Counted from the stretch's first letter, positions 1 to 26,762 are shown. The stretch: 47,872 nucleotides of DNA from Candidatus Limnocylindrales bacterium (GCA_035699625.1 DASSPM010000008.1:1-47872), one strand, 5' to 3'. Made by a program: numbers and translations. Notes: generated by a model from the letters alone, not told the origin.

Positions 1-1278
1 CACGGCCACCACCGCCAGCACGCTCACCCAGCCGCCGGCCTCGACCGCGGCCAGGATGACGTAGGCCTTGGCGAAGAAGCCGGCCAGCGGCGGGATGCCC
101 ACCAGCGAGAGCAGGAAGAGCGTCATCACCGCGCCCGCCACCGGCGCCCGGCGCCCCAGCCCGGCGAAGGTCTCGATCTGGCTGGTCACGCCGCGGCGGC
201 CCTGGAGCATGGCCACCACGGCGAAGGCACCGAGGTTCATGAAGGCGTAGGCGGCGGCGTAGAAGATGACCCCGAAGAGGCCCGCCCGCTCCGCCTCCGA
301 GCCGGCCGGCGAGCCGGCATAGGCGGCCAGGCCGACGAGCATGTAGCCGGTATGGGCGATGGAGCTGTAGGCGAGCATGCGCTTGATGTTGTCCTGGGTC
401 AGGGCGACCAGGTTGCCCAAGGTCATGGTCGTCGCCGCCAGGGCCACCACGAAGGGCGTCCAGTCGGCCTTGACCGGCCCGAGCGCGTCCACGAAGAGGC
501 GCAGGATGAGCGCGAAGGCGGCCACCTTGGGGCCGACCGAGAGGTAGCCCGTGATGGGCGTGGGCGAGCCCTGGTAGGCGTCGGGCGTCCAGTAGTGGAA
601 GGGCACCGCGGCGATCTTGAAGGCGGCGCCGGTCGTCAGCAGCGCCAGGCCCATGGCGAGGCCGGGCGGGAAGGGCGCCGCGCCCGTGCCCACGCCGGCG
701 AGCGCCTGGGCGACCTCGGCGATGCGCGTGCTGCCGCTGAAGCCCCAGGTGAAGGCCAGCCCGAAGAGGAAGATGGCGCTCGAGAATGAGCCCAGCAGGA
801 AGTACTTGATGGCGCCCTCGGTCGAGTAGCCGTCGCCCTTGGCGTAGCCGGCCAGCATGTAGCCCGGCAGGACCATCAGCTCGAGGCCCAGGAAGAGCAC
901 CAGCAGGTCGCGCGAGCCGGCGATGAGCATGGCGCCGCTGATGGCGAAGAGGAGCGTCGCGCAGAGCTCGGCCATGGGCAGCCGCCGCACGCGCAGGTAC
1001 TCCGGGGCAAAGAGGATGGTCAGCAGGGCCACGGCCAGGAAGAGCAGGTCGAGGAAGCTGGTCAGCGCATCGCGCACGTAGGCGCCGCCGAAGGCCTCGC
1101 GCGTGCCGCCGCCCGCGGCCAGGCCGACCACGGCCATGCCCACCACGGTGCCCAGGCCGGCCAGCCCGCCGGTGATGTCGTCGCGGCGGGGGGCCAGGAT
1201 GTCGGCCAAGATGACCGCCAGGGCGAGGCCGACGACATAGATCAGCGGCGCGATGGCCGACAGCTCAGCGCCGGTCAT
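1..1278 (-). CDS. nuoN: NADH-quinone oxidoreductase subunit N (3' end runs off window)
   Basis: Manual translation from ATG at 1278 (not in ORF track because no stop in window): MTGAELSAIAPLIYV...EGAIKYFLLGSFSS...FKIAAVPFHYWTPDAYQGSPTP...NIKRMLAYSSIAHTGY...SLVGIPPLAGFFAK, diagnostic antiporter-like NuoN motifs; follows nuoM. Confidence 0.95.
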   Translation of the reverse strand, partial: MTGAELSAIAPLIYVVGLALAVILADILAPRRDDITGGLAGLGTVVGMAVVGLAAGGGTREAFGGAYVRDALTSFLDLLFLAVALLTILFAPEYLRVRRLPMAELCATLLFAISGAMLIAGSRDLLVLFLGLELMVLPGYMLAGYAKGDGYSTEGAIKYFLLGSFSSAIFLFGLAFTWGFSGSTRIAEVAQALAGVGTGAAPFPPGLAMGLALLTTGAAFKIAAVPFHYWTPDAYQGSPTPITGYLSVGPKVAAFALILRLFVDALGPVKADWTPFVVALAATTMTLGNLVALTQDNIKRMLAYSSIAHTGYMLVGLAAYAGSPAGSEAERAGLFGVIFYAAAYAFMNLGAFAVVAMLQGRRGVTSQIETFAGLGRRAPVAGAVMTLFLLSLVGIPPLAGFFAKAYVILAAVEAGGWVSVLAVVAV

Positions 1279-1291
1279 GCCCCTGCTCCCA

Positions 1292-2818
1292 TCAGCGCAG
1301 CCCCGCCAGCGTGACGCGGTCGATGGCCTCGAGCACGTCGGTCACCGGCGCGTGCAGCAGCTCCAGCACGAGACCCGGGAAGACGCCGAAGACCAGCGTC
1401 AGCGCCGCCAGCGGCGCCAGCGTGGCCAGCTCGACCGGCCGCATGTCGGTCAGGTGGTGGCCCAGGCCGCGCAGGAAATCGGAGAGCTCGCCGAAGACGA
1501 CGCGCTGGAACATCCACATCAGGTACGCCGCCGAGAGGATGACCACGACCGTGGCCACGGCCGCCGCGGCCGGGTTGACGGCGAAGGTGCCGACCAGCAC
1601 CAGGAACTCGCCCACGAAGCCGGCCAGGCCGGGCAGGCCCAGGCTGGCCAGCATGAAGAAGCCGAAGACGGCGGCGTAGACCGGCGTCGGCGCGGCCAAG
1701 CCGCCCATGCGCGCGATGGTCCGGTCGTGGGTGCGCTCGTAGATGACGCCCACGAGCAGGAAGAGGGCGCCCGTGATGAGGCCGTGGTTGACCATCTGCA
1801 GGATGGCCCCCTCGAGCGCCTGGGGCTGGAAGACGAAGATGCCCAGGGTCACGAAGCCCATGTGGCTGACCGAGGAGTAGGCCACCAGCTTCTTGAGGTC
1901 GGGCTGCACGAGGGCCACGATGGCGCCGTAGATGACGGCGATGAGCGAGAGCACGATGATGGCCGGCGCGAAGGTGTGTGCCGCGTCGGGATAGAGCGGC
2001 AGTGCGAAGCGGATGAAGCCGTAGCCGCCCAGCTTCAGCAGCACCCCCGCCAGGATCACCGAGCCAGCCGTGGGTGCCTCGACGTGCGCGTCGGGCAGCC
2101 AGGTGTGGAACGGGAACATCGGCACCTTGATGGCGAAGGCCAGGAAGAAGGCCACGAAGGCGAACAGCTGCAGCTCCTGGGCGAAGCCGGCCGTGGCCAT
2201 ATGGCTCACCAGGCGCTCGTAGTCGAAGGCGCCGGCCCAGGACCCCGTCGCGGCCTGGTAGGCAAAGGCGGTGGCCAGGATGGCCACCAGCATCAGCAGC
2301 GAGCCGACGAGCGTGTAGAGGACGAACTTGATGGTGGCGTAGATGCGGTTGGCGCCGCCCCAGATGCCGATGATCAGGTACATCGGCACGAGCACGACTT
2401 CCCAGAAGACGTAGAAGAGGAAGAGGTCGAGGGCGACGAAGACGCCGAGCATGCCGACCTCGAGCACGAGGAAGGAGATCATGTACTCCTTCACGCGCTC
2501 CTGGATGGGCCCGAAGCTGGCCAGGATGCTGATCCAGGTGAGCAGCGTGGTGAGCACCACCATGGCCACGGCCAGGCCGTCCACGCCCATCTTGAACTGC
2601 ACGCCGAAGGCGGGGATCCAGTCGGCGGCAACGACGTACTGGAAGCCGCTCGCCTTGGGGTCGAGGCCGGCCAGCAGCAGCAGCGAGAGGCCGAAGCTGA
2701 CCAGCGAGGCGGCCAGCGCGCCCCAGCGGATGAGGTCGCTCCGCTCGCGCGGCACGAAGGCCAGCGCCACGGCACCCGCCAGGGGCACGAAGGTGATGGC
2801 CGGCAGCAGCCACTCCAT
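1292..2818 (-). CDS. nuoM: NADH-quinone oxidoreductase subunit M
   Basis: C-terminal part of ORF 1292..4576 from MEWLLPAITF (ATG 2818, overlaps the nuoL stop as TGATG); motifs LFYVFWEVVLVP, AFAIKVPMFPFHTWLPDAHVEAPT, LKKLVAYSSVSHMG. Confidence 0.95.
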   Translation of the reverse strand: MEWLLPAITFVPLAGAVALAFVPRERSDLIRWGALAASLVSFGLSLLLLAGLDPKASGFQYVVAADWIPAFGVQFKMGVDGLAVAMVVLTTLLTWISILASFGPIQERVKEYMISFLVLEVGMLGVFVALDLFLFYVFWEVVLVPMYLIIGIWGGANRIYATIKFVLYTLVGSLLMLVAILATAFAYQAATGSWAGAFDYERLVSHMATAGFAQELQLFAFVAFFLAFAIKVPMFPFHTWLPDAHVEAPTAGSVILAGVLLKLGGYGFIRFALPLYPDAAHTFAPAIIVLSLIAVIYGAIVALVQPDLKKLVAYSSVSHMGFVTLGIFVFQPQALEGAILQMVNHGLITGALFLLVGVIYERTHDRTIARMGGLAAPTPVYAAVFGFFMLASLGLPGLAGFVGEFLVLVGTFAVNPAAAAVATVVVILSAAYLMWMFQRVVFGELSDFLRGLGHHLTDMRPVELATLAPLAALTLVFGVFPGLVLELLHAPVTDVLEAIDRVTLAGLR

Positions 2819-4785
2819 CAGCGGCCCGCCACGAAGAGGAAGCCGCCGGCCATCACGAGCAGGCCGAGGGCGATGAAGAAGGCATAGTTCTGGACGCGGC
2901 CCGTCTGGACCTGGCGCACCTGGCGGCCGCTCTGCTGGGTGAGCCAGCCGATGCCGTTGACGGCCCCGTCGATGACGTGCACGTCGAACCACCACATGGC
3001 GTGAGCGACGACGCCGCCGATGCGCACGAAGAGCAGGTCGTTGAGCTCGTCGAACCACCACTTGTGGTAGGACGCCGTGTAGAGCGGCCGCAGCTTGAAG
3101 GTGAGGCGCTCCACCAGCGCCGGCCGCGGCGCGGCCTCCCGGCCGAAGAGCGGCAGCAGGCCGAAGAAGCGCACGGCGACGAGGATGCCCAGCAGCCCGG
3201 CGGCGATGCTGACCGCCATCAGCACGCCGTCGATGCCGAAGAACTGGAACGAGGCAGCATGGTGCCCGAGCGCTTCCCGGGCTTCGTGGAAGACCGGTTC
3301 CAGCCAGCCGTGCAGGAAGCCGTCCTCGGGCGGGAAGCCGATGAGCGCGCCGAGGATCAGCGTCGGCACGGCCAGCAGCCAGAGCGGCAGGGTCATCACC
3401 GGCGGCGACTCGTGCACCTTGGGCTCGACGTGTGGATCGACGTGCGACGGCCCGTAGAACGTCTTGCCCATCAGCCGGAACATGTAGAAGGCGGTCAGCG
3501 CGGCGACCACCACGCCGATGCCCCAGACCCAGTAGAAGCCGGTCTTGAAGGCCTCGCCCAGGATCTCGTCCTTGCTGAAGAAGCCCGAGAGCAGGGGGAA
3601 GCCCGAGATGGCCAGCGCGGCGATGAGCATGGTCAGGTGCGTCTGCGGGATCTTCCGCCAGAGCCCGCCCATGCGGTTCATGTCCTGCTCCTCGTGCACG
3701 GCATGGATGACCGAGCCGGAGCCGAGGAAGAGGAGGCCCTTGAAGAAGCCGTGGGTCATGAGGTGGAAGATGGCCGCCGTGAAGGCGCCCACGCCGAGGG
3801 CCGCGAACATGTAGCCCAGCTGGCTCAGCGTGGAGTAGGCCAGGACGCGCTTGATGTCGTTCTGGGTGAGCGCGATCGACGCGGCCAGGATGGCCGTGAA
3901 GATGCCCACCGCGGCGACCACCACCATGGCCGTCGGTGCCTGGGCGAAGATGGGGCTGGTGCGGGCGACCATGTAGACACCGGCGTTGACCATGGTCGCG
4001 GCATGGATGAGGGCCGAGACCGGGGTCGGGCCTTCCATCGCGTCGGGCAGCCAGACGTGCAGCGGGAACTGCGCGCTCTTGCCCACGGCGCCGGCGAAGA
4101 GGAGCAGCGCCATGACCGTCACGGCCATGGGCGAGAGCGCCCCGTCGTGCACCAGCTCGGGGATGCGCTCGAAGACCTCGCCGAAGTCGAGCGTGCCCAC
4201 GACGGTCCAGATCATCATGATGCCCAGCCCGAAGCCGAGGTCGCCCACGCGGTTGACGATGAAGGCCTTCTTGGCCGCCAGGGCCGCGCTGCGCCGCGTG
4301 TACCAGTAGCCGATGAGCAGATAGCTGCACAGGCCGACCAGCTCCCAGGCGGCGAAGAGGAGCAGGAAGTTGTCGGCCAGGACGAGCAGCAGCATGCTGA
4401 ACATGAAGAGGTTGAGGTAGGCGAAGAAGCGCCAGCGACCCGGCTCGTGGGCCATGTAGCCGATCGAGTAGACGTGCACCAGCATGCCCACCGTGGTGAC
4501 CACGATGAGCAGCGCCGCGGTCAGGTTGTCGACCAGGAAGTTGGCCGCCACGCTGAACTCCCCGGCCGGGATCCACTCGTAGAGCGTGAACCGCAGGCCG
4601 TGCTCGCCGTAGGCGCCGCTGAGGGCGCTGAAGACGACCACCATGCCGATCAGCCAGGTCAGCACGATGGCTGGCACGGCGATGATCCAGGCGCGCGTGG
4701 TGAGCCGCCGGCCGACGGCCGCGGTGAGCGCGAAGCCACCCAGCGGCAGGGCCAGCAGGAGCGAGACGAGCAGCTCGTGGGACAC
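2818..4785 (-). CDS. nuoL: NADH-quinone oxidoreductase subunit L
   Basis: 655 aa; WELVGLCSYLLIG, GKSAQFPLHVWLPDAMEGPTPVSALIHAATMV, DIKRVLAYSTLSQLGYM, C-terminal QTGRVQNYA. Confidence 0.96.
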   Translation of the reverse strand: MSHELLVSLLLALPLGGFALTAAVGRRLTTRAWIIAVPAIVLTWLIGMVVVFSALSGAYGEHGLRFTLYEWIPAGEFSVAANFLVDNLTAALLIVVTTVGMLVHVYSIGYMAHEPGRWRFFAYLNLFMFSMLLLVLADNFLLLFAAWELVGLCSYLLIGYWYTRRSAALAAKKAFIVNRVGDLGFGLGIMMIWTVVGTLDFGEVFERIPELVHDGALSPMAVTVMALLLFAGAVGKSAQFPLHVWLPDAMEGPTPVSALIHAATMVNAGVYMVARTSPIFAQAPTAMVVVAAVGIFTAILAASIALTQNDIKRVLAYSTLSQLGYMFAALGVGAFTAAIFHLMTHGFFKGLLFLGSGSVIHAVHEEQDMNRMGGLWRKIPQTHLTMLIAALAISGFPLLSGFFSKDEILGEAFKTGFYWVWGIGVVVAALTAFYMFRLMGKTFYGPSHVDPHVEPKVHESPPVMTLPLWLLAVPTLILGALIGFPPEDGFLHGWLEPVFHEAREALGHHAASFQFFGIDGVLMAVSIAAGLLGILVAVRFFGLLPLFGREAAPRPALVERLTFKLRPLYTASYHKWWFDELNDLLFVRIGGVVAHAMWWFDVHVIDGAVNGIGWLTQQSGRQVRQVQTGRVQNYAFFIALGLLVMAGGFLFVAGR

Positions 4786-4787
4786 GG

Positions 4788-5099
4788 CTACTGGCGCATC
4801 CGGTCGTACTCGTCCACCAGCGGCGTGCGCCGGTTGCGGTAGATGGCGATGACGATGGCCAGGCCGACCGTCGCCTCGGCCGCCGCCACGGCCATGACCA
4901 TCAGGGCGATGACCGAGGCGTCGCCGCGCAGCGGCGGGATGAAGGCGCCGAAGGCGACGATGGCCAGGTTGACCGCGTTGAGCATCAGCTCGATGGACAT
5001 GAGCATGGCGATGGCGTTGCGCCGGGAGAGGAAGCCGAAGGCGCCGATCGAGAAGAGCAGCACCGAGAGCATCAGGTAGGCCTCGAGCGACTGGCTCAC
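4788..5099 (-). CDS. nuoK: NADH-quinone oxidoreductase subunit K
   Basis: GTG 5099 overlapping the nuoJ stop (GTGA); [20 protein letters not shown]...[19 protein letters not shown], 103 aa. Confidence 0.95.
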
Positions 5100-5677
5100 G
5101 GACCGGCCTCCGGCTCGCTCACCGGTCGCTGCTGCACGATGGACTGCGGCTCGTCCTCGCGCTTGGCCAGGAAGACGCCGCCCACGACCGCGGCCAGGAG
5201 CAGCACGCTGACCACCTCGAAGGGCAGCACGTAGCGGTCGAAGAGGAGGCGCGCCAGCTCGTCGGTGCGCGTGGCCCCGCCCGGCGTGGTCGCCTGCGGC
5301 CAGTCCGTGCCGCTGACGGCGACGACCAGCAGCACGGCCAGCACGATCACGGCGACGCCGGCCAGAGCCGCCTGCGGGTGGAAGACGAGCCTGGCGGGCC
5401 CGACCTTGGTCTGGGTGAGCATGATGGCGAAGAGGACGAGCACGCTGATGGCGCCGATGTAGACGAGCACCTGTGCCGCACCCACGAGCGCCGCGCCGAG
5501 CAGCACGTAGATGCCGGCCAGGGCGGCGAAGGAGAAGATCATCCAGAGCCCGGAGCGGATGATGTCGCGGCCCAGCACGACCAGCAGCGCCGACCCCAGC
5601 ATGATGGCCGCGAAGGCGAGGAAGAGGAGGTCCTCCCAGCGCCACTCCAGGATGGGGATGGTGGGCGGCAGCGTCAC
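5096..5677 (-). CDS. nuoJ: NADH-quinone oxidoreductase subunit J
   Basis: [19 protein letters not shown] and [18 protein letters not shown] motifs; position between the I region and nuoK. Confidence 0.93.
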
Positions 5678-5695: not shown

Positions 5696-8293
5696 CTAGC
5701 GGGCATGGGCGTGGCCGCCCCCGGCCGCGCCGTGGTCGTGGCCGTCGTGGGCATGGCCGTCGCCGTGCCCATCGCGCGCGTGGCCGTTGCCCGTGACGCT
5801 CGTCGGCAGCATCGGCAGCAGCCGGTCCGGGCGGACCTGGCGGCCGGAGGCCTGCGCGCGCTGCAGCCAGTCGCGCTCGCGGCGCACGTAGCTGATCTCC
5901 GTGTCGCGATCGATCGCGCTGATGGCCAGCAGGTCGATCATCGGCTCGGCTCGGCTCTCGTGGCTCAGCTCGAAGTCGGGGCCGCAGCGCAGCGCGTCAT
6001 AGGGGCAGGCATCGACGCAGATGCCGCACAGGATGCAGCGGCTCTCGTCCACGTCGTACTGCTCGAGCACGCGCGGCTTGGGCATCAGCGCGCCGGTCGG
6101 GCAGGTCTCGGCGCAGCGGCCGCAGGAGACACAGGGCGTCGTGTTGAGACTCATGTCGAGCGGCGTGGTGACCAGCGTGTCGAAGCCGGTGCGCATGAAG
6201 TCGTAGCAGGCGGCGCCCACGACCTCCTTGCAGACGTTGGCGCAGCGGCCGCAGTCGATGCAGCGCGACGGCTCGCGCAGGATGAAGGCGTGGCTGTCGT
6301 CGCGGATGTAGTCGTGGTTGGTGCCGGTGAAGCGGTTCTCGCCCACGCTGCGGAAGCTGAAGGCGCCGCCGTTCTGCGGTTCGAGCGTCTTGAGCGTGGT
6401 GCCGTACTCGATGCCCTGGCGGCGCAGGTCGCAATAGCCGATGGCCTCGCAGGTGCACTGCAGGCAGCGCTTGGACTCGGCCATCGCCTCCTGCTGCGAG
6501 TAGGGGATCTCGTACTCGACGTAGCTCTCGCGGCGGATCTCGGGCGACATCGCCTTGAGCCGGATGCGCGGCTCCTTGAGCTCGCCCGTGAAGGGCACGA
6601 TGGAGAGGAACTCGGGCTGCGGCTCGGCCAGCGTCTGGCGCGTCCGGATGGCCTCCAGGTCCTCGCCCTGCAGGTAGGCGTCGATGGCGTAGGCGGCACG
6701 CCGCCCCTCGGCGTTGGCCTGCACCACGGTGGCCGAGCCGACGCGCACGTCGCCCGTGCCGAAGACGCCCGGGCGGCCCGTGGCGAAGGTCACCGCGTCG
6801 GCCTTGAGGCGGTTGTTCTTCGTCGCTGCCACGCCGTCCGCGCCGCGCTCCAGCCAGGAGAGGTCCGGGCCCTGGCCGATGGCCAGCAGCACCCGGTCGC
6901 ACTCGATGACGAACTCCGTGCCGGGCATCGGCTCGGGGCGCCGCCGGCCCGAGGCGTCGGGCTCGCCGAGGCGCATGCGCTGGAACTCGACGCCCGTGAC
7001 CTTGCCGCCGTCGTCGGCCAGGACGCGCGTCGGCGCGGCCTGGAAGATGGCCGTGGCGCCCTCCTCGATGGCCTCGTGGACCTCGTTCGCGGCGGGCATG
7101 TCCTTCATGTCGCGGCGGTAGACGAGGGTCACCTCGGCCGCGCCCTGGCGGACCGAGGTGCGCGTGCAGTCCATCGAGGTGAAGCCGCCGCCGATGACCA
7201 CCACGCGCTTGCCCTTGTGCCCGGGATAGGGCAGGCCGAGCGTGGCGATGCGCAGGTACTCGAGGCCGTCGAGCACCCCGTCCGCGTCCTCGCCGGGGAT
7301 GCCCAGCTTGTTCGTGTCGTAGCAGCCGATGGCGATGCAGATCGCGTCGAAGCCCTGGTTCTGCAGATCGTCCAGGGTGAAGTCACGGCCCAGCGCGGCA
7401 TTGGTGACCAGCTTCCCGCCCAGCTGCCAGACCGCGTCGTACTCCGGGTCGAGGATCTCCTCCTTGGGCAACCGGTACTGCGGGATGCCGTAGCGGAGCA
7501 TGCCGCCCTGCTCCGGGTCGCGCTCGAAGACGGTCACCTCGTGGCCGGCGATGAGCAGGTAGTAGGCAGCCGACATGCCCGCCGGGCCCGAGCCGATGAC
7601 GGCCACGCGCTTGCCGCTCTTGGGCTTGACCTCGAAGGGCACGGGCGCCCGGGCACCGGCCTTCTGGAGCTTGAGCACCTGGTCGCCCGCGTAGCGGTGG
7701 CTGTCGCGGATGGCGATGGCCTCCTCCACCTCGTCGCGCCGGCAATGCTCCTCGCAGGGTGCCGGGCAGACGCGGCCGAGCACGCTGGGGAAGGGGATGG
7801 TGCGCTTGAAGATGCGCGCCGACTCGACGAAGTTGCCCTCGGTGTTGGCCTTCAGGAAGCCCGGGATGTCGATGTGGCTGGGGCACTTGTTCTGGCAGGG
7901 CGGCAGGCAGTAGGCGTTGTGGTCGCTGAAGATCAGCTCCAGGTTCGTCTTGCGCAGCTGGCGGATGCGCGGCGTCTGCGTGCGCACGACCATGCCCGGC
8001 TCGGCCTGCCGCGAGCAGCTGATGGGCGGCTGGCCCTCGCCGTCGACGTCCACGACGCACATGCGGCAGGCACCGAAGCCGGGCAGCTTGGGCTCGTAGC
8101 AGAGGGTCGGGATCTCGATGCCGTTGTCGCGGCAGACCTCGAGGATGGTCTGGCCGGCGCGGCCCGTGACCTGGCGCCCGTCGACCTCGATGGTGAAGGC
8201 GGGCGCGCTCAGCGGGCGCTGCGGCGCCTGCGTCTCGAGCAGGCGCTCGATGGAGGCGTCGGCGGCGGAGGCGTGGGGCAGCAGCTCGGTCAT
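5696..8293 (-). CDS. NuoG/StnC-like Fe-S flavoprotein: 2Fe-2S + inserted GltD-like FAD/NADP(H) domain + 2x4Fe-4S, fused to a C-terminal NuoI half
   Basis: ORF 5696..8383, probable start ATG 8293 (MTELLP). PTLCY...GACRMC...ISC (N1b-type); SDHNAYC; PCQNKCP...[12 protein letters not shown]; VIGSGPAG; [11 protein letters not shown]...YRR; [13 protein letters not shown]; [23 protein letters not shown]; then [29 protein letters not shown]. Confidence 0.88.
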
Positions 8294-8339
8294 CGGTCGC
8301 GCACTCTGGGTCGGGGGACCTCGCGCTCGGTGGCCATGG

Positions 8340-9671
8340 TCATCGCACCGGGGCGGCGGCGGTCCGGAGCGGACGGCAGACACCTGCCGGACAGGTGCTC
8401 CGGACGATGTGGTCTTCGAACTCCTGGGCGAAGTATCGCATCCCGCTCATGAGCGGGTTGGGCGCCGTGATGCCGTGGCCGCAGAGCGAGCCGTCGCGGA
8501 TGTCCGCCGAGAGGTCGCTCGCCAGCTGCAGGTCCGTCGGGCGCGGCCGGCCGCCGCTGAAGCGCTCGCCGATCTCGGTCAGGCGGCGCACGCCGATGCG
8601 GCAGGGGATGCACTTGCCGCACGACTCGTCGCTCATGAAGCGGCTCATCAGCGTGGCCAGGTCGACGATGCAGGCGCGCTCGTCGGCCACCACCAGGGAA
8701 CCCGAGCCCATGATCGCGCCAGCCTCGGCGAGGCTGCCGTACCCGAGCGCCACGTCCAGCCCGGCCGCGGGCAGGAAGCCGCCCGACGGGCCGCCCACGA
8801 GGACCGCCTTGAGCGTCGCGCCATCGGCCACGCCGCCGCCGATCTCCTCCACCAGGCTGCCCACGCTGGTGCCCAGCGGGACCTCGACGATGCCCGGCTT
8901 GGCCACGGCGCCGGTCAGCTGCACGAGCGTGGTGCCGCTCACCTCGTCGGTGCCCATGGCGCGGTAGGCCTCGGCGCCGTTGGCCACGATCCAGGGCACG
9001 GCGGCCAGCGTCTCCACGTTGTTGACCAGCGTCGGCTCGCCCCACAGGCCGGCGGTCGCCGGGTAGGGCGGCCGCTGGTCGGGCATGGCGCGCTTGCCCT
9101 CGAGGGCGCGCAGCAGCACGGTCTCCTCGCCCAGCACGAAGGCGCCGGCCAGCGGGCGCAGCTCGATGTGCAGGTCGAAGCCGGCGCCCAGCGCGTCCGA
9201 GCCGATGTAGCCGGCCTCCTCGGCCGTGCGGATGGCCGCGGCCAGGCGGCGTGCGGCGAGGCCGTAGCCGGCCTTGACGACGAGGTAGGCCTGTGTCGCG
9301 CCCACGGCGAAGGCGGCCAGCGCGAGGCCCTCCACGACCGCGTGCGGGTCGAGCTCCATGAGCGTCCGGTCGAGGCTGGCCCCCGGGTCCGCCTCGTAGC
9401 CGTTGGCCACGGCGTAGTGGCGCTCGCCCGGTGCGGCGCGGCAGGCGCGCCACTTCTCGCCGGTCGGGAAGCCGGCGCCGCCCCGGCCGCGCAGCCCGGA
9501 GGCCGTCACGCGGCGGATGAGGCCCTCCGGTCCGATGTCGGCCACGGCCGCCTTCCAGGACGACCAGGCGCCGGCCTTCTCGGCCGCGGCGAGGCCCGCC
9601 TCGGGGTCGTAGCGACCGGCACGCCCGAGCAGCACGCGCGGCCAGCGGCGCGGTCCCTTGAGCAGCTCCAT
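8340..9671 (-). CDS. nuoF: NuoF/HydB-like FMN-NADH binding subunit
   Basis: From MELLKGP (ATG 9671, overlapping the upstream stop); GLRGRGGAGFPTGEKW, GEETVLLRALEGK, PTLVNNVETL, GGPSGG, ESCGKCIPCRIG...SLCGHG (N3), ends HIVRSTCPAGVC. Confidence 0.9.
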   Translation of the reverse strand: MELLKGPRRWPRVLLGRAGRYDPEAGLAAAEKAGAWSSWKAAVADIGPEGLIRRVTASGLRGRGGAGFPTGEKWRACRAAPGERHYAVANGYEADPGASLDRTLMELDPHAVVEGLALAAFAVGATQAYLVVKAGYGLAARRLAAAIRTAEEAGYIGSDALGAGFDLHIELRPLAGAFVLGEETVLLRALEGKRAMPDQRPPYPATAGLWGEPTLVNNVETLAAVPWIVANGAEAYRAMGTDEVSGTTLVQLTGAVAKPGIVEVPLGTSVGSLVEEIGGGVADGATLKAVLVGGPSGGFLPAAGLDVALGYGSLAEAGAIMGSGSLVVADERACIVDLATLMSRFMSDESCGKCIPCRIGVRRLTEIGERFSGGRPRPTDLQLASDLSADIRDGSLCGHGITAPNPLMSGMRYFAQEFEDHIVRSTCPAGVCRPLRTAAAPVR

Positions 9672-10504
9672 CAGGCGCGCCCCGCCGGTGCCGCGGCGGC
9701 CCGGAGGCGCTCGGCGAGGGCGCGCGCGCCGTCGGCGTCGAGGCCCTCCTGGGGCGCGCCGTCGAGGGTCACGAAGGGTCCGCCCGGCGACTCGCCCTGG
9801 CAGTCGGCCGGTGCCAGCCGGGCGACGCCGTCGGGGCTGACGCCGCCCACGCTGGTGCCCAGCGCCTCCTCCAGCGCGGCCACGATGCGGCCGGCGCCGC
9901 GCATGGCGCAGGCGGCGCAGCGGCAGACGCCGATCTCGTGCGTCGTGGGCGGCTCCAGGCGCAGGTGCTCGTAGCTGGTGGCCGTGCCGTAGAGCTCGCT
10001 GTACCAGGCGCCGGTCTGGTGGCTGATGTGCTTGAGCGCCGCCACGGGCAGGTGGCCGTAGGCCTCCTGGGTCCGCTCCAGGATGCGCAGCATCCGCTTG
10101 GGGTCGTACTCCTCCTCTTCCAGGATGCGCTCCAGCGGCCCGAGGTCGACCGGCACGAAGTCGCTGAAGGCCTCGTCCGGCACGGGCCGCCCGGAGCGCC
10201 GCAGGGCCGACTCCTCGCGCCGCTCGGCGTACTGCTCGGCCGGGCCCCAGTGGACGTGGAAGCGGTTCTTGGTGTCCACGCCGCCCATGTCGATGATCTC
10301 GATGGGGCAGGCCTGCGCGCACTGGAAGCAGGTCTCGCACTTGAGGTTGCCGTACTCGTCGTAGAGCAGGATGAGGCGGCCGCGGTGGCGCGGGGCGATC
10401 TCCTGGACCTCCTCGGGGTACTGCACCGTGGCCTTGCGCTGGAGCATGCGCAGCAGCGTGCGGGCCATGCCCTTCACGACGCCGATGCCGGGCATCAGGC
10501 TCAT
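9671..10504 (-). CDS. Fusion of NuoI N-terminal half and NuoE-like 2Fe-2S thioredoxin-fold domain
   Basis: ATVQYPEE...PRHRGRL...CETCFQCAQACP (one ferredoxin motif only), then ILERTQEAYGHLP...LYGTATSY...HEIGVCRCAAC...DG...DCQG (NuoE-like). Confidence 0.85.
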   Translation of the reverse strand: MSLMPGIGVVKGMARTLLRMLQRKATVQYPEEVQEIAPRHRGRLILLYDEYGNLKCETCFQCAQACPIEIIDMGGVDTKNRFHVHWGPAEQYAERREESALRRSGRPVPDEAFSDFVPVDLGPLERILEEEEYDPKRMLRILERTQEAYGHLPVAALKHISHQTGAWYSELYGTATSYEHLRLEPPTTHEIGVCRCAACAMRGAGRIVAALEEALGTSVGGVSPDGVARLAPADCQGESPGGPFVTLDGAPQEGLDADGARALAERLRAAAAPAGRA

Positions 10505-10508
10505 CTGG

Positions 10509-11924
10509 TCACCGCAGCTGCTCGACGACGACGACCGCGGCGGCCGTCACGAAGAGGTTCAGCAGCGCCGCCGGCAGCAGCCACTTCCAGGCGAAGCCCA
10601 TCAGCTGGTCGACGCGCACCCGCGGCAACGTGCCGCGCATCCAGACGAAGACGAAGACGAAGAAGTAGGTCTTGGCCAGGAACCAGATGAGCCCCAGCAC
10701 GACCTCGAAGCTGAGCGTCAGCCAGAGGCCGACGAGGGCGCCGGCGAGGACGTTGAAGAGGATGAAGCCGACCACCAGCGACTTCAGGAAGGACCAGTCG
10801 CTCCTGAGCATCCAGATGGGCAGGGTCAGCAGCAGGATGGCCAGCGGCGGCACGATGAGCACGCCGAATAGGAGCAGGTGGCCCAGGCGCGAGGGGTCGA
10901 TGGTGGGGTCGACGCCGATGCCGAACTGCGAGAGCAGCAGGCCGAGGTCGATGGGTGCCGTCCAGCCGCCCAGGAAGAGCACCACCGTGAGCGCCGAGAG
11001 GATGAAGACGTTGACGTACTCGGCGAAGAAGAAGAAACCGAAGCGCATGCCGCTGTACTCGGTGGCGAAGCCGGCCACGATCTCGCTGTCGGCCTCGGTC
11101 AGGTCGAAGGGCGCCCGGTTGCCCTCCGCCGTGGCGGCGATGAAGAAGATCAGGAAGGCCAGCGGCTGCTGCCAGACGTACCAGTCGAGGAAGGTCAGGC
11201 TGCGCAGGATGGGCGGCCCGCTGGTCAGACCCGACTGGTTGAGCACGATCTGGTTGAGGCTCATCGTGCCGGCCAGGATGATCACGCCGACCACGGCCAG
11301 CGTGAGCGGGATCTCGTAGCTGATGATCTGGGCCGCCGCGCGCAGGCCGCCCAGCAGCGAGTACTTGTTGAAGCTCGACCAGCCGGCCATGAGCAGGCCC
11401 AGCACGGTCAGGCCGCCCATGGCGAAGAAGTAGAGCAGGCCGATGTTCATGTCCATGCCGATGAGGCCGGGCGCGAAGGGCAGCACCAGGAAGGCCAGCA
11501 CGGACGAGAGGTAGGTCACGATGGGCGCCAGGGTGAAGACCGCCACGTCCGCGCCCGTGGGCGTGTAGTCCTCCTTGGCCAGCACCTTGAAGCCGTGGAT
11601 GGCCGACTGGAGGAGGCCCCAGGGCCCGACCCGGTTGGGCCCCAGGCGGAGGTTCATCAGGGCGATGAACTTCATCTCCATGTAGATGATCACGAAGGCC
11701 GTGGGCACGGTGAAGAGGAGCACGGCCGTGGCGGCCACGATGAAGCGGACGATGCCGATGTTGTCGACCGCCAGCTGGATCAGCCAGCCCAGCAGGAAGG
11801 GGATGATGCCCGTGGCCACGCCGGCCACCAGGACGATCGTCAGGAGCAGCAGGAGCAGCAGCAGCGGCAGGACGATCTTGCCCGCCAGCGTGAGGCGGCT
11901 CCAGGGCCGCGCCAGGACGCTCAC
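10509..11924 (-). CDS. nuoH: NADH-quinone oxidoreductase subunit H (long, with extra hydrophobic segments)
   Basis: GTG 11924 overlapping the nuoD stop; RLGPNRVGPWGLLQ, KYSLLGGLRAAAQIISYEIP, AEGNRAPFDLTEADSEIVAGFATEYSG, RGTLPRVRVDQLM. Confidence 0.94.
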   Translation of the reverse strand: MSVLARPWSRLTLAGKIVLPLLLLLLLLTIVLVAGVATGIIPFLLGWLIQLAVDNIGIVRFIVAATAVLLFTVPTAFVIIYMEMKFIALMNLRLGPNRVGPWGLLQSAIHGFKVLAKEDYTPTGADVAVFTLAPIVTYLSSVLAFLVLPFAPGLIGMDMNIGLLYFFAMGGLTVLGLLMAGWSSFNKYSLLGGLRAAAQIISYEIPLTLAVVGVIILAGTMSLNQIVLNQSGLTSGPPILRSLTFLDWYVWQQPLAFLIFFIAATAEGNRAPFDLTEADSEIVAGFATEYSGMRFGFFFFAEYVNVFILSALTVVLFLGGWTAPIDLGLLLSQFGIGVDPTIDPSRLGHLLLFGVLIVPPLAILLLTLPIWMLRSDWSFLKSLVVGFILFNVLAGALVGLWLTLSFEVVLGLIWFLAKTYFFVFVFVWMRGTLPRVRVDQLMGFAWKWLLPAALLNLFVTAAAVVVVEQLR

Positions 11925-13144
11925 TTGTCCACGCCGCCCATGATCGGGTCGAGGCTGGCCATGATGGCCATCGTGTCGGCGATGAGGTTGCCCGGCATGA
12001 GCAGCCCGACCGTCTGGAGGTTGAAGTAGGACGGGTCGTGGATGCGGAAGCGGAAGGGCTGGTCGGAGCCGTCGCTCATGGCGTAGACGGCGTACTGGCC
12101 GCGCGGGCTCTCGAGCGCGGCGAAGGCGCGCCCGGGCGGGATGCGCAGCAGGCGCGGCAGCTTGGCCATGACCGGCCCGTCGGGCATCTGGTGCAGCACC
12201 TGGTCGATGATGTGGATGCTCTGGCGGATCTCGTCCAGGTGGAGCAGGTAGCGCGCGTAGCTGTCGCCTTCGGTGCGCGTCGGGATGCCGAACTCGAGCT
12301 CGGGGTAGACGCTGTAGGGATGCGCCCGGCGCACGTCGTAGGGGATGCCCGTGGCGCGCAGGGGCGGACCCGTGAGGCACATGCGCAGGGCCGTGGCGCG
12401 GTCGATGGTGCCCAGGCCGCGCACGCGCTTGACGAAGATCTCGTTCTCGTTGATGAGCGTCTGGCTGTCCTCGATGCGATGCGCGGCGCGGCTCATCCAG
12501 TCGCCCAGCCGGCTCAGGAAGTCGTGGTTGAGGTCGCCGTTGACGCCGCCGATGCGCAGGTAGTTGAAGAGCAGCCGCTGACCGGTCAGCGAGGCCAGCA
12601 TCTCGACGATCTCGTCACGCTCGATGAAGCCGTAGAGGATGGGCGTCAGGCCGCCCAGGTCGAGCGCCAGCCAGCCCATGAAGAGGGCGTGGCTGGAGAT
12701 GCGGTTGAGCTCCCAGGCCAGGACGCGGATGTACTCGGCGCGGCGGGGCACCTTGAGCTCGAGCAGCTTCTCGGCCGCCAGCACCGGCAGCGCCTCGCTG
12801 AACATCGAGGCGATGTACTCCAGCGGGTCGCAGTTGCTGATGGCCATGTGCCAGTCGCAGTTCTCGCAGATCTTCTCGACGCCGCGGTGGAGGTAGCCCA
12901 GCACGGGGTCCAGGTCGACCACCCGCTCGCCGTCGATCTTGAGCACGACGCGCAGCACGCCGTGGGTCGAGGGGTGCTGCGGCCCGAGGTTGATGAGCAT
13001 CTCGCCGTCGCGCAGCGTGTAGAACTCGGCCTCGCGCTCGGTCTGCGGCGGGTAGGGCGGCACCGCGTCGTAGATGGTGGCGGGCGTGTCGACGATGACC
13101 GTCGGGTCGTCGAGCGAGCGGACGCGGGTCGGGTCGGCGGCCAT
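11921..13144 (-). CDS. nuoD: NADH-quinone oxidoreductase subunit D
   Basis: ATG 13144; NLGPQHPSTHGVLR, GYLHRGVEK, ELNRISSH, ESPRG, RFRIHDPS; no NiFe-binding CxxC motifs seen. Confidence 0.95.
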   Translation of the reverse strand: MAADPTRVRSLDDPTVIVDTPATIYDAVPPYPPQTEREAEFYTLRDGEMLINLGPQHPSTHGVLRVVLKIDGERVVDLDPVLGYLHRGVEKICENCDWHMAISNCDPLEYIASMFSEALPVLAAEKLLELKVPRRAEYIRVLAWELNRISSHALFMGWLALDLGGLTPILYGFIERDEIVEMLASLTGQRLLFNYLRIGGVNGDLNHDFLSRLGDWMSRAAHRIEDSQTLINENEIFVKRVRGLGTIDRATALRMCLTGPPLRATGIPYDVRRAHPYSVYPELEFGIPTRTEGDSYARYLLHLDEIRQSIHIIDQVLHQMPDGPVMAKLPRLLRIPPGRAFAALESPRGQYAVYAMSDGSDQPFRFRIHDPSYFNLQTVGLLMPGNLIADTMAIMASLDPIMGGVDK

Positions 13145-13695
13145 CAGTCCAGCTGGCTCCGGCGCAGGAGGACCTCGTCGGGCGCGTCGGCGGGCGGCGC
13201 GGTCTGCTCCATGTGGCGCACGCCCATGCCCGGCGAGCGGGCGGCGTCGTCGGGCAGCAGGAAGTCCTTGCGCAGCGGGAAGGACTTGTAGTCGGGCGGC
13301 ATGTAGATGCGGCGCAGGTCCCGGTTGCCCTCGAAGATGATGCCGAACATGTCGTAGGCCTCGCGCTCGCCCCACTCCGCGCCCTTCCAGAGGAAGGTCA
13401 CCGAGGGGACGCGCGGGTCGTCGCGCGGCAGGTCGTCGGCGATGACGCGCAGCCAGTCGGGCGAGGTCGCCGACCAGAGATGGTAGACGACCTGCATCTT
13501 GCGGCCCGTGTCGACACCGCAGATGTCGGCCAGCAGCGTGAAGCGCAGGTCGGGGTCGTCGTGCAGCGTGCGCATCACGTCGATCACGTCGCCCGCGGCG
13601 ATGCGCAGCTCGGTCGTGTCCTGCTTCTGCCAGACGGGTCCGAGGAGGCGGTCGCCGAGGCGGGCTTCGAGGCGGCGCTTGAGGGCGCTGTCCGT
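13144..13695 (-). CDS. nuoC: NADH-quinone oxidoreductase subunit C (start uncertain; probably ACG at 13695)
   Basis: LADICGVD, VPSVTFLWKGAEWGEREAYDMFGIIFEGNRDLRRIYMP...FPLRKDF. The reading frame stays NuoC-like for 36 codons upstream of the first canonical start (13587), up to a strong AAAGGAG. Confidence 0.9.
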   Translation of the reverse strand, partial: TDSALKRRLEARLGDRLLGPVWQKQDTTELRIAAGDVIDVMRTLHDDPDLRFTLLADICGVDTGRKMQVVYHLWSATSPDWLRVIADDLPRDDPRVPSVTFLWKGAEWGEREAYDMFGIIFEGNRDLRRIYMPPDYKSFPLRKDFLLPDDAARSPGMGVRHMEQTAPPADAPDEVLLRRSQLD

Positions 13696-13714: not shown

Positions 13715-14527
13715 TCAGACGCCGGCCGGCACCGACGGCCCGATCTGGCGCTCGCGCCAGTGGCCGCGCCGCTCGCGGATGAGCTGCTGCAGCTTGAGCA
13801 TGCCGTAGATGAGGCCCTCCGGGCGCGGCGGGCAGCCGGGCACGTAGACGTCCACGGGCATGATCCGGTCGATGCCCTCGACCGTGGCGTAGGAGCGCTT
13901 GTAGCGGCCGCCCGAGCAGGTGCAGTCGCCCATGGCCACGCACCACTTGGGCTCGGGCATCTGCTCCCAGAGGCGCAGCAGCGGACCGGCCATCTTGGTC
14001 GTCAGCGTGCCGGCCACGATGAGCACGTCCGCCTGGCGCGGGCTGGCCCGGAAGGGGAACATGCCGAAGCGGTCCATGTCGTTGCGACTGGTGGCTGCCG
14101 ACATCATCTCCATGGCGCAGCAGGCGAGGCCCGAGAGGAGCGGCCAGAGGCTGTTGAGACGGATCAGGTCGAGCACGTAGTCGGCCGTCGTGGGGATGAC
14201 CTCCAGGGCGCCCGACCAGCGCGCGTTGTCGCTGTGGTCGCCGTGCATGGCCAGCTCGCGCAGGTGGGTCACGGCCGGCGGCCCGGCGTAGGCCGTGGGG
14301 TCGGCCGCCTCCCAGAAGGTGTTGGGCACCACGATCGGCTCGGCCACCGCCCGCTCGCCGCTCGCCTCGAGGCTCATCACGGCCGGTTCATTGCTCGGCT
14401 GGTCGGAGGACATGGGGGTCTGCTCGGCGGCGTCGGACGCGGCGGAAATGGCGGTCGGCTCGGCGGGGGCCGGCTCGGCGGGGGCCGGCTCGCTGCGGGC
14501 GCGGCGGCCGCGCTTGGTCACTTCCAC
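13715..14527 (-). CDS. nuoB: NADH-quinone oxidoreductase subunit B with long N-terminal extension
   Basis: [50 protein letters not shown]; start GTG 14527 or 14521 overlapping the nuoA end. Confidence 0.93.
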
Positions 14528-14880
14528 GTCAGGACCCCCTTGCGCCAGGCGTAGCCCAGCCCGAAGAGCAGGATGGCCACGAAGACGAACATGCTCACCA
14601 GGCCGCCCAGCAGCACGTCCTGGAAGACGAGCGCCCAGAGGTAGATGAAGACGACCTCGATGTCGAAGGCCACGAAGAGCAGGGCATAGATGTAGAAGGA
14701 GAGGCCGAAGCGGCCCCAGGTGTCGCCGTACGTGTCGATGCCCGACTCGTAGGGCAGCCCCTTGTGGCGGTCGCCCTTGTTGCGGTGGCTGAGCAGCCAC
14801 GCCATGACGATCGTGATGAGCACGAAGGTGAACCCGGCGAACGCGAAGCCGAGCACGTACCAGATGCCAGGACCGGTCAC
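14518..14880 (-). CDS. nuoA: NADH-quinone oxidoreductase subunit A
   Basis: 120 aa, 3 TM; [37 protein letters not shown]. Confidence 0.95.
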
Positions 14881-22271: not shown

Positions 22272-22754
22272 TCAGCCGGCCGGCGGGCGGCCGCCCCAGC
22301 GCGCCAGCTCGGCCTCGATGTCGAGCGGTGCCACGATGCCGCGCTTGTCGTACTCGCCCCACGCCTCGCGCGGCAGCATCCACATCAGCTCGAACTCGTT
22401 GCCGTCTGGGTCGCGGCCGTAGAGCGACTTGGTGGCGCCGTGGTCGGAGGCGCCGGTCAGCGCGCCCAGCGCAGAGAGCTGCTGCGCCGCCGCGGCGAGG
22501 TCCTCGATGCGCGGCACCTCCCAGGCCAGGTGGTAGAGGCCGGTCGCGCCGCGCGGCGGCCGCGGTGCCTCCGGGCCGAGCGCCAGCAGGCCCAGGTCGT
22601 GGTGGTTGCTCGAGCCGCGCGCCCGCAGGAAGGCCATCCGGCCGCCCTCGCGGGCGATCTCCTCGAAGTCGAAGGCGCGCCGGTAGAAGTCGCTCGCGAC
22701 GTCGAGGTCGCGCACGAAGAGGACTGCGTGGTTGAGTCGGGCGACGGGGATCAT
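22272..22754 (-). CDS. VOC/glyoxalase family protein
   Basis: LNHAVLFVRDL..S..FY, HHDLGL, GLYHLAWEV, SLYGRDPDGNEFEL. Confidence 0.88.
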   Translation of the reverse strand: MIPVARLNHAVLFVRDLDVASDFYRRAFDFEEIAREGGRMAFLRARGSSNHHDLGLLALGPEAPRPPRGATGLYHLAWEVPRIEDLAAAAQQLSALGALTGASDHGATKSLYGRDPDGNEFELMWMLPREAWGEYDKRGIVAPLDIEAELARWGGRPPAG

Positions 22755-23992
22755 GGCGAGCCTCCAGGTGCTGGCGTGGGGTCGGATGCGGGGAGCCGGA
22801 AGCGGAGGCCGAGCAGCGGCGGCTCGGCGGCCACGCCGCGCGCGAAGACAAGGACGGCGAAGCGGCCCATGGCCTGCGGGTCGAGGAAGCGCAGCACCGC
22901 GTTGCGCGCGTCGCGGTGGCCGGCCTCGCCCACGTCGGGGCGGGCACGGCGCGAGACGAGCAACTCGCCCAGCTCCAGCCCGGCCAGGAACTCCGCCTGC
23001 GTCGTGCGCCCGAGGAGCGTCAGGCCGGCCTCGGCGGCGGCCCGCTCCAGGGCGCCCGTCTCCACGTGCGCCGTCAGGTCCTGCTCGCCCACCGCGCGGT
23101 ACGGGTCGTCGCCGGCGTGGTGGCCGCGGTAGGTGCGCAGCGTGCCCGCCGGCATGCGCGCGTGCAGCGCGGCGGCCGGACCGCCGTAGTCGATGATCAG
23201 CAGGAAGCCGCGCTCCAGCGTGGGCGCGACCCGCTGCAGCCAATCGATCGCGGCCAGCGAGACCTCGGCGCACTCGCCCTCGGCGAGCTGCAGCCCGCTC
23301 GCCGCCAGGGCCGGTTCGAGGCGCTCGTCGGAGAGCGGCCCTGGCTCGTCGGCGAACCAGCTCTCGCGCCAGGTGACGTGCAGCTCGACCAGGCGGCCGG
23401 CGATGCGCGCCAGGCGGTGCACCGGCAGCGCGTCGAGCAGCTCGTTGGCCACCAGGCAGCCGACGAAAGGCGTGGTCGGGTCGGCCCAGCGCAGCTGCTC
23501 GCCCAGGCCGGCCGCCGCGAAGGCCGCCTCGATGGCGCGCCGGCGCTCCGGACCCGACTCGACCGGTTCGTAGCGCAGCGCCTCGGCCAGGGGAGAGGCG
23601 TCCAGCCGCAGCCCGGCCAGGACGCTCGTGCCGAGCGCACCGGTGCCCGCCCCGTGGTCACGCAGCACGAACGGCTCCGGCCGCCCGAGGCGCTGCCACA
23701 TCTCCTCGAGCTGGCGCGCCAGGGCGTGGCCGAAGATGGGGTCCGTTTCGGGGGCGGTCAGGAAGTCGCCCGTGCGCGTGGCGCGGTCGCTGCGCCGCCG
23801 GTAGTAGCCCAGGCCGGGCTCGTAGAGGGCGAGCTGCATGAAGCGGGCGAAGGGGATGCGTCCCTCCGGCGCCCGCTCGATCGCGTCACGGATGCGCTCC
23901 ACGAGCGGGGCGTGGCTCTCGGCCCAGCGCGCAGCGGCGGCCGCGGGCGCGGGCTGCGTGCCGAGTGGTCCGGTCGTCCTCACGGCGCCCAT
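22751..23992 (-). CDS. SAM-dependent methyltransferase, MidA/NDUFAF7 family
   Basis: IPFARFMQLALYEPGLGYY, GDFLTAPE..PIFG, HGAGTG, VANELLDALP, LIIDYG, GEQDLTAHV; start ATG 23992 is approximate. Confidence 0.88.
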   Translation of the reverse strand: MGAVRTTGPLGTQPAPAAAAARWAESHAPLVERIRDAIERAPEGRIPFARFMQLALYEPGLGYYRRRSDRATRTGDFLTAPETDPIFGHALARQLEEMWQRLGRPEPFVLRDHGAGTGALGTSVLAGLRLDASPLAEALRYEPVESGPERRRAIEAAFAAAGLGEQLRWADPTTPFVGCLVANELLDALPVHRLARIAGRLVELHVTWRESWFADEPGPLSDERLEPALAASGLQLAEGECAEVSLAAIDWLQRVAPTLERGFLLIIDYGGPAAALHARMPAGTLRTYRGHHAGDDPYRAVGEQDLTAHVETGALERAAAEAGLTLLGRTTQAEFLAGLELGELLVSRRARPDVGEAGHRDARNAVLRFLDPQAMGRFAVLVFARGVAAEPPLLGLRFRLPASDPTPAPGGSP

Positions 23993-24035
23993 GATGCCCC
24001 TCGTGCGGCGCCGGCGCCGCGCACGCGGCGGCGGC

Positions 24036-26762
<2,727 letters not shown>

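Follow-up and report, generated by a model that had tools for sequence, protein, structure and literature searches.

The window analysed here, 47,872 nt in length, is one whole 47.9-kb contig (GCA_035699625.1 DASSPM010000008.1) of a Candidatus Limnocylindrales metagenome-assembled genome (MAG) from the uncultured class Limnocylindria of the Chloroflexota; the source MAG comprises 2.4 Mb in 170 contigs, is 87% complete and has ~72% G+C. It carries a complex I (nuo) operon in which the sequence of the connecting subunit NuoI is divided between two genes. All genes of the operon lie on the minus strand, in the order nuoA-B-C-D-H, a gene that fuses the N-terminal half of NuoI, I(N), to an E-like protein (I(N)::E), an F-like gene, a gene that joins a 2Fe-2S domain, a GltD-like domain and a 2x[4Fe-4S] domain to the C-terminal half of NuoI, I(C) (this gene and its product are called G' here), and nuoJ-K-L-M-N. 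This was the only complex I operon found in the source MAG.

The three genes between nuoH and nuoJ occupy 9671-10504 (277 residues), 8340-9671 (443 residues) and 5696-8293 or 8383 (865 or 895 residues, depending on the start codon). They are tightly packed: the ATG of I(N)::E is at 10504, 4 nt past the nuoH stop, and the ATG of the F-like gene overlaps the stop codon of I(N)::E (TGATG). For comparison we used a class sample of 121 genomes, together with gene alignments built from loci of 64 genomes in four families, of which 61 were usable for G'/I(C).

Few enzymes have been studied as thoroughly as complex I, whose 14 core subunits and chain of clusters are treated as near-universal. Limnocylindria (Ellin6529/CSP1-4) are a dominant uncultured group of soils and lakes, very abundant in both soil and freshwater. 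In full-text literature searches, no published description of a split NuoI, or of an Nfn-type module on complex I, was found. Source annotations name proteins of the I(N)::E type 'NuoE' or 'NAD(P)H-dependent oxidoreductase subunit E', and under these pipeline names the split NuoI is invisible.

The two NuoI segments and their occurrence

An initial annotation of the window proposed that NuoI is split over two genes with a module between them, and located one cysteine motif in each; both motifs lie where it placed them (nt 10304-10339 and ~5954-6061), and the two parts match separate stretches of the same NuoI model in separate open reading frames (ORFs). The fusion gene I(N)::E (9671..10504, minus strand; 277 residues), whose full-length homologues are 65-76% identical, joins the NuoI N-half to a NuoE/NfnC-like protein. 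I(N) itself (10220..10504, minus strand) covers NuoI residues 1-95 and contains an N-terminal amphipathic helix, the motif PRHRGR, the cysteine motif C56-x2-C59-x2-C62-x3-C66-P and, at its end, ...GPAEQYAER. By profile scan, residues 12-78 of I(N)::E match positions 1-66 of the 121 in NuoI model TIGR01971. The segment CETCFQCAQACP is residues 56-67 of the 277-residue ORF 9671-10504(-), at nt 10304-10339, and residues 7-89 of M. smegmatis NuoI align with I(N).

The second segment, I(C) (5894..6061, minus strand), spans residues 775 to ~830 of G', starts 13 residues after the A2/A4 ferredoxin domain described below, and contains YDVDESR-C783-x2-C786-x2-C789-x3-C793-P and GPDFEL. Residues 771-814 of G' match TIGR01971 at about positions 71-115 of 121, and the core of the segment, with GPDFEL...HESR, is residues 775-810 of ORF 5696-8383(-) (nt ~5954-6061). 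I(C) lies in the last gene before nuoJ, as the initial annotation stated, with the refinement that it stops short of the C-terminus: ~65 residues come after it, including a His/Gly-rich tail (...HAHAR; 5699..5794, minus strand) that is variable and found in family f1 only. The tail could be a metal-binding segment or just a stretch of low complexity.

Searched alone, I(C) had NuoI/NdhI models as all nine of its best NCBIfam matches (45.6 bits), with a generic ferredoxin model at 24.4 bits. Against the PDB it gave a single stretch of similarity to TYKY/NuoI residues 152-198 (~52 bits), while single polyferredoxin repeats reached at most 28 bits; the high totals that polyferredoxins obtain against I(C) arise because repeats of at most 28 bits each are summed. 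The possibility, raised in the initial annotation, that the motif aligns better with generic ferredoxins is answered by both comparisons in favour of the NuoI C-half.

The two halves cover complementary stretches of TIGR01971 without overlap and hold one CxxCxxCxxxCP motif each. Joined in silico, they gave one unbroken alignment to positions 1-115 of 121 (94.1 bits), and the 10 best families were all NuoI/NdhI; the halves scored 44-45 and 44-50 bits singly, and intact NuoI from four relatives scored 142-145 bits. The NuoI-specific flanks (N-terminal helix, PRxRG, YxxDxxRC and GPxFE) are all present between nuoH and nuoJ, spread over two proteins. Comparison with intact Chloroflexota and M. smegmatis NuoI places the cut between R95 of the N-half and Y775 of the C-half, and no sequence is missing or repeated there. 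In the intact NuoI of another Chloroflexota genome the residues ...VSPGERYAER stand immediately before the break point and YEINLLRCIYCGYC... immediately after it. The insertion site is thus the loop separating the two cluster motifs of NuoI, between ...GERYAER and YxxDxxRC.

An intact nuoI elsewhere that might serve this complex, a caveat of the initial annotation, was not found in the source MAG: a profile search for a further NuoI-like gene returned the two halves as its two best matches. Intact NuoI scored above cut-off in 4 of the 121 class genomes, and 117 are without it. In the two of these four that were inspected (L025, G022:C21; L026, G075:C2), the intact nuoI is part of a canonical operon of 14 genes that the genome has in addition to the split-NuoI operon. 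Closed or near-closed genomes (1-4 contigs) hold the two NuoI halves only.

A protein spanning the I(N)/E junction occurs in ~116 of the 121 class genomes and is cut by contig ends in three more. The gene order B-C-D-H-I(N)E-F-G'I(C)-J-K-L is conserved in families f1, f2 and f4. Family f3 (genome G004) has two loci, B-D-I(N)E'-F-G'I(C) (L020 6021-12337) and C-H-J-K-L-M-N (L024 7725-14900), so that nuoJ directly follows nuoH, yet both NuoI halves are kept. We considered a soluble variant of the enzyme in f3 and rejected it, as the membrane genes sit at the second locus.

All 64 genomes keep the four Cys and the Pro of I(N) unchanged, and all 61 usable sequences keep those of I(C); counting the two motifs (A and B) of the complete ferredoxin domain of G', the 16 Cys of the four motifs are invariant over 61-64 genomes of four families. 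Within a family the I(N) and I(C) segments hardly vary, and such differences as exist follow phylogeny. A public species-level genome collection contains at least 555 loci with a relative of the system; the best 80 of these are labelled Chloroflexota or Candidatus Limnocylindrales nearly throughout, including CSP1-4 and closed chromosomes, and two records are labelled as other phyla. In a phylum-wide sample, the f3-type fusion was found in a few families outside Limnocylindria. In one of them, family f10 of another Chloroflexota class (L169 6528-11484, L170 7140-11820), the f3-type cluster runs from nuoB straight into I(N)E', F and G'I(C) without an intervening nuoD, which extends the split design past Limnocylindria within the Chloroflexota.

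These counts bear on the explanation that the divided gene is an artefact, produced by misassembly or pseudogenisation of nuoI in a fragmented MAG. The state of the source MAG, with its 170 contigs and 87% completeness, would be compatible with such an error. However, the I(N)-E, F, G-GltD-I(C) synteny that the initial annotation suggested looking for in other genomes recurs, with the same frames and fusions, in ~116 of the 121 class genomes, closed chromosomes included, and in at least 555 loci, and the cluster ligands are invariant. This recurrence excludes misassembly and pseudogenisation, and we assign the explanation a probability close to nil.

The inserted cassette

The inserted genes had initially been annotated as an E/F/G module. 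The insertion itself stands; the identity with canonical NuoEFG does not, since the three proteins miss the canonical equivalog cut-offs (nuoF_fam, 403 vs 559 bits; nuoE_fam, 60 vs 142; NuoG, 91 vs 470). The closest solved relatives of all three are the subunits of NfnABC/StnABC from C. saccharolyticus (9bov), S. ovata (8oh5) and T. sibiricus (9n5u) (PMC11829005, PMC10482914, PMC12018979). To judge by their sequences, the inserted genes are a trimmed Nfn/Stn (Bfu-family) cassette.

The F-like gene (8340..9671, minus strand) encodes a 443-residue NfnB/StnB-type NADH/flavin mononucleotide (FMN) subunit with an N3/B1 cluster (Pfam Complex1_51K, SLBB and NADH_4Fe-4S). Its best PDB matches are 9bov_B, 8oh5_B and 9n5u_B at 425-441 bits (441 to 9bov_B), and no complex I NuoF exceeded 306 bits. 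Of the 584 residues of 9bov_B (NfnB) the alignment takes in only 103-528, from which it follows that the N-terminal thioredoxin-like domain and the C-terminal 2x[4Fe-4S] (B3/B4) domain are absent; the protein lacks both in 64 of 64 genomes. At 1 of the 64 loci (L048, G053:C15) the F-like and G' sequences share one 1556-residue open frame (182-4849), which is a possible natural F-G' fusion. Other apparent F-G' single frames (1100-1550 residues, at several loci) were rejected as stop-free shadow frames of high-GC DNA.

The NuoE/NfnC-like part of I(N)::E (9704..10132, minus strand; residues 125-267) consists of a helical N-domain and a thioredoxin-like domain (PF01257, E 3.7e-25). In the window it keeps Cys194, 196, 199 and 235, and one canonical 2Fe-2S ligand is missing; in most relatives the second Cys pair is gone. 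The whole thioredoxin-like domain is gone in ~15 f1 genomes and in all f3 genomes, where the helical N-domain alone is kept; the f3 protein E', 239 residues in length, has thus lost the entire thioredoxin-like 2Fe-2S domain.

The G' gene (5696..8293, minus strand) encodes 865 residues from the ATG at 8293, and the longest ORF starts from a GTG at 8383 (895 residues). The product is NfnA/StnC-like: its residues 65-793 match residues 6-699 of the 1178 in NfnA of Caldicellulosiruptor NfnABC (9bov_A; E 4.6e-167), with StnC (8oh5_C) and T. sibiricus NfnA (9n5u_A) as the next-best structures. It begins with a 2Fe-2S domain of A1/N1b type (7973..8197, minus strand; PF13510), in which Cys95, 106, 109 and 123 are invariant. 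A GltD/NfnL-like domain with two [4Fe-4S] sites follows (6659..7909, minus strand; residues 159-575; PF14691 and PF07992; NF009454, 556 bits); it has the flavin adenine dinucleotide (FAD) site GSGPAG and the predicted NADPH site GGGFTSMD...VYRR. Across the aligned genomes the six Cys of the GltD-type clusters, the FAD motif GxGPAG and the NADPH motif GGGFT..D...VYRR are invariant. Next come a C640-x2-C-x-C-x5-C651 motif at the position of cluster A3 (6431..6466, minus strand; invariant in 61 of 61) and a complete 2x[4Fe-4S] domain of A2/A4 (HydA FS4B/FS4A) type (6098..6262, minus strand), with motif A (C708, 711, 714, 718) and motif B (C751, 754, 757, 761-P). Pfam and NCBIfam scans detected no molybdopterin-type domain in G'.

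One ligand of the GltD-like domain differs from the solved enzymes. His229 of G' (window 7697-7699) aligns with Lys170 of Csac NfnA, a ligand of cluster A7, and this His is invariant in 61 Limnocylindria genomes; the A7 Lys ligand is reported as conserved across Bfu family members (PMC11829005). The substitution may hint at a retuned cluster potential.

The alignment of G' to NfnA holds through ...CPTGAL, after which NfnA continues into the cluster of its Mo-type domain (TVCTFCGMGC) and G' into the NuoI C-half. Motifs A and B align to the full A2/A4 (FS4B/FS4A) dicluster domain of 9bov_A and of T. maritima HydA, and, as they are complete by homology, the cysteine motif of I(C) (motif C) is left without a partner in cis. 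An alternative is that motif C pairs with the preceding motif B of the same protein to form an ordinary dicluster, in which case I(N) would bind one cluster or none and no cluster would be shared between polypeptides. Pfam Fer4_7 and Fer4_9 do align over G' residues 751-797, spanning motifs B and C. But motif B is homologous to the second of the two motifs in the complete NfnA and HydA A2/A4 domain, and motif A, with which it pairs, is intact and invariant; I(C) carries the NuoI flanks YxxDxxRC and GPxFE, and its scores are ~46-52 bits with NuoI but no more than 28 bits with ferredoxin repeats; and pairing in cis leaves unexplained why I(N) keeps its four Cys and Pro in 64 of 64 genomes. We consider it decidedly improbable.

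G' thus shares with NfnA/StnC the order of 2Fe-2S domain, GltD/NfnL-like FAD/NADPH domain, A3 motif and A2/A4 dicluster, and the other two proteins share with NfnB and NfnC the F-like FMN/NADH core with cluster B1 and the NfnC/NuoE-like N-domain. The cassette differs from the soluble Nfn/Stn enzymes in being encoded inside a complex I operon and in the fusion of the NuoI N-half to NfnC. Where NfnA has its Mo-type (Fdh/NuoG-like) domain and cluster A5, G' has the NuoI C-half, and the A7 ligand is His rather than Lys; unlike in NfnB, there is neither the N-terminal domain nor the ferredoxin-reducing B3/B4 domain; and unlike in NfnC, the cluster ligands are degenerate.

With canonical 14-subunit complex I (NuoA-N/Nqo1-14; 4HEA, 8E9G, 7AWT) the enzyme shares ordinary NuoA, B, C, D, H, J, K, L, M and N subunits, visible N2 cysteines in NuoB, and a full NuoI sequence with both CxxCxxCxxxCP motifs. 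It differs in having NuoI on two polypeptides, no NuoG C-terminal domain, a GltD-type FAD/NADPH domain, and the order H-I(N)E-F-G'I(C)-J.

Proposed assembly, electron path and function

Each cluster of a 2x[4Fe-4S] ferredoxin fold is bound by three Cys of one motif plus a single Cys of the other motif, and in canonical complex I the C-terminal domain of NuoG helps to hold the N-module on the Q-module. Because the A/B dicluster is complete, G' and I(N)::E are left with one orphan motif each, and there is no other NuoI in the genome, we infer that the two halves come together in trans. They probably reassemble as N6a/N6b and so clasp a non-bifurcating NADH and NADPH dehydrogenase onto the quinone module. 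Either cluster would then be bound by three Cys of one polypeptide and a fourth Cys of its partner, and the rebuilt NuoI would serve as both wire and clasp, holding the input module on NuoB/D/H. Its N-half would be tethered to the F-binding NfnC/NuoE N-domain and its C-half would lie 13 residues past the last ferredoxin domain of G'; such a clasp would compensate for the missing interface of the NuoG C-terminal domain.

The ancestral operon may have been an 11-gene core, nuoABCD-H-I-JKLMN, whose nuoI was entered by a three-gene cassette from a soluble NfnABC/StnABC-type (Bfu family) flavoenzyme. In full, the account would be that of a natural split ferredoxin (N6a and N6b each ligated by two polypeptides) that arose when a transhydrogenase operon landed in the nuoI of an 11-subunit complex I, giving a second, independent invention of an N-module that docks via the hydrogenase/FDH-type A4 branch, which leads nowhere in soluble Nfn enzymes, and one pump that draws on both the NADH and NADPH pools. 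We lean towards this account, if only slightly.

In NfnABC, electrons are described as passing along FAD-A7-A6-A3-A2-A1-[B1-FMN-C1]-B3-B4-ferredoxin, and the A2-A4-A5 branch as a non-functional remnant of a formate-dehydrogenase ancestor (PMC11829005). By homology to 9bov, NADH electrons in the Limnocylindria enzyme would pass through FMN, B1/N3 and A1 to A2, and NADPH electrons through FAD, A7, A6 and A3 to the same A2. From A2 both streams would continue through A4, N6a/N6b and N2 to quinone and drive an unchanged proton-pumping membrane arm. With no B3/B4 exit left and the NuoI C-half in the position of the A5 domain, an exit at A4 is the simplest path. Docking probably occurs through A4, a position at which canonical NuoG has no cluster, rather than by the N5 route; if so, docking outside the N5 route fits an independent acquisition of the input module.

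The same architecture could be used differently, with the GltD-like site as a point of output or exchange: reverse flow driven by the proton-motive force might make NADPH, the A2 hub might carry NADH/NADPH transhydrogenation, or electrons might go to another acceptor. The parent enzyme is a reversible transhydrogenase, both nucleotide sites lie on one Fe-S hub by homology, and the A7 ligand is His where the three solved soluble Nfn/Stn structures compared have Lys, with its hint of a retuned potential. However, transfer from NAD(P)H to quinone is strongly downhill, PntAB already supplies NADPH in the lineage, and the sequence carries no sign of direction. We rate such a use as unlikely, though worth keeping in view.

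Ancestry in the Bfu family also invites the proposal that the module bifurcates or confurcates, oxidising reduced ferredoxin and NAD(P)H together for quinone reduction as in the predicted Nuo-Bfu of Geobacter. The cassette does belong to the Bfu family by sequence, and Bfu-type complex I enzymes were predicted by Schut et al. 2022 (PMC9304861). Yet the N-terminal and B3/B4 ferredoxin-interacting domains of BfuB are absent in 64 of 64 genomes, the ligands of cluster C1 are degenerate or their domain is missing, and by a published criterion homologues without B2-B5 do not bifurcate (PMC9304861). We regard bifurcation or confurcation as very improbable. With the B3/B4 and N-terminal domains absent and the NfnC/NuoE (C1) cluster degenerate or lost in many genomes, no bifurcation is expected, and the enzyme is most likely, as read from its domains, a non-bifurcating NADH- and NADPH:quinone oxidoreductase.

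Several points weigh against trans reassembly and the electron path proposed with it. The joined halves remain under the NuoI cut-offs (94.1 vs 113 bits for TIGR01971; 100.5 vs 163 bits for NF004537), a result that we attribute to a divergent NuoI. Ligation in trans is something we infer from the arrangement of motifs, NADP(H) binding is predicted from motifs as well, and the sequence gives no direction of flow. The exit cluster could be A3 instead of A4. PntAB is present in 9 of 10 relatives, which means that an NADPH-oxidising complex I would need regulation against a futile cycle and that the NADPH site is not the cell's only link between the NADH and NADPH pools.

Structure prediction adds a further such point at first sight. 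In the AlphaFold2 model of I(N)::E (40 homologues), the predicted local distance difference test score (pLDDT) is <50 for residues 24-114, the cluster-binding core of I(N), while the NuoE-like part reaches 80-94 and the N-terminal helix is confident too. In the model of G' residues 630-845 (41 homologues), mean pLDDT is 31.8, and values are <50 nearly throughout, including the complete A2/A4 domain. Because a complete domain also falls below 50, low confidence on Fe-S domains is no sign that a half-domain is incomplete, and the AlphaFold2 models bear neither for nor against assembly in trans.

Two systems in the literature come near to the arrangement proposed here. The Nuo-Bfu enzymes that Schut et al. 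2022 (PMC9304861) predicted in Geobacter, Deferribacteres, Planctomycetes and Nitrospirae are likewise encoded by a proton-pumping complex I-like operon where a Bfu-family module replaces NuoEFG. That paper describes them with 14 subunits (A-N) and a complete bifurcating BfuBC core that uses ferredoxin, and mentions neither a NuoI split nor an NADPH/GltD domain; in the Limnocylindria enzyme, by contrast, the core is trimmed, NuoI is split and a predicted NADPH site is added. In mbx-like operons a GltD-related flavoprotein occupies the position of the NuoI homologue (Degli Esposti 2015, PMC4758237), and these operons share with the present one a GltD-type NAD(P)H flavoprotein tied to a membrane complex of the complex I family. 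The difference is that the flavoprotein of those Mrp/Mbx-type complexes stands in for the NuoI homologue, whereas the present operon is a true Nuo operon that retains the two NuoI halves, fused to the module. A split NuoI, or an Nfn-type module on complex I, is described in neither paper.

The architecture as proposed would have a connecting subunit made from two fusion proteins, with the NuoG C-terminal domain gone and a GltD-type NADPH site built in. If correct, it would show a route by which an 11-subunit complex I gains an input module, and so bear on the open question of N-module origin. It would also provide a rare natural case of Fe-S clusters shared by polypeptides within a ferredoxin fold, useful for the design of split ferredoxins. 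For Limnocylindria (Ellin6529/CSP1-4), a proton-pumping NADPH:quinone oxidoreductase, if true, would change models of redox balance.

Other operon genes and neighbouring sequence

The remaining genes of the operon, all on the minus strand, were assigned by Pfam and NCBIfam. Upstream of the cassette these are nuoA (14518-14880), nuoB (13715 to ~14500), nuoC (13144-13587), nuoD (11921-13144) and nuoH (10509-11924); downstream of it are nuoJ (5096-5677), nuoK (4788-5099), nuoL (2818-4785), nuoM (1292-2818) and nuoN (1-1278), which runs off the contig. The nuoB frame is open over 13715-14800, with a long Pro/Ala-rich N-terminal extension; its Pfam match begins at residue 127 of 261, and the start codon is uncertain. 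NuoH has 471 residues and includes an ~85-residue hydrophobic insertion (residues ~328-411), probably extra transmembrane helices, which is present in families f1 and f2 and appears as an alignment gap in f4.

The frame of nuoM was settled by paralogy to NuoL/NuoN. A competing frame, 1275-2813 (minus strand), has no Pfam match and was rejected as a stop-free shadow frame of high-GC DNA. Off-frame shadow ORFs in this 72% G+C DNA stay open for hundreds of codons and even give tblastn matches of 47% identity between genomes, so that ORF length and cross-genome matches alone are unsafe as evidence in DNA of this composition.

A gene for a methyltransferase of family PF02636, to which the complex I assembly factor NDUFAF7/MidA belongs, lies at window 22754-24190 (minus strand), ~8 kb from nuoA. 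A PF02636 methyltransferase is also encoded at L020 4862-6217 (minus strand), directly downstream of the G'I(C) gene of family f3.

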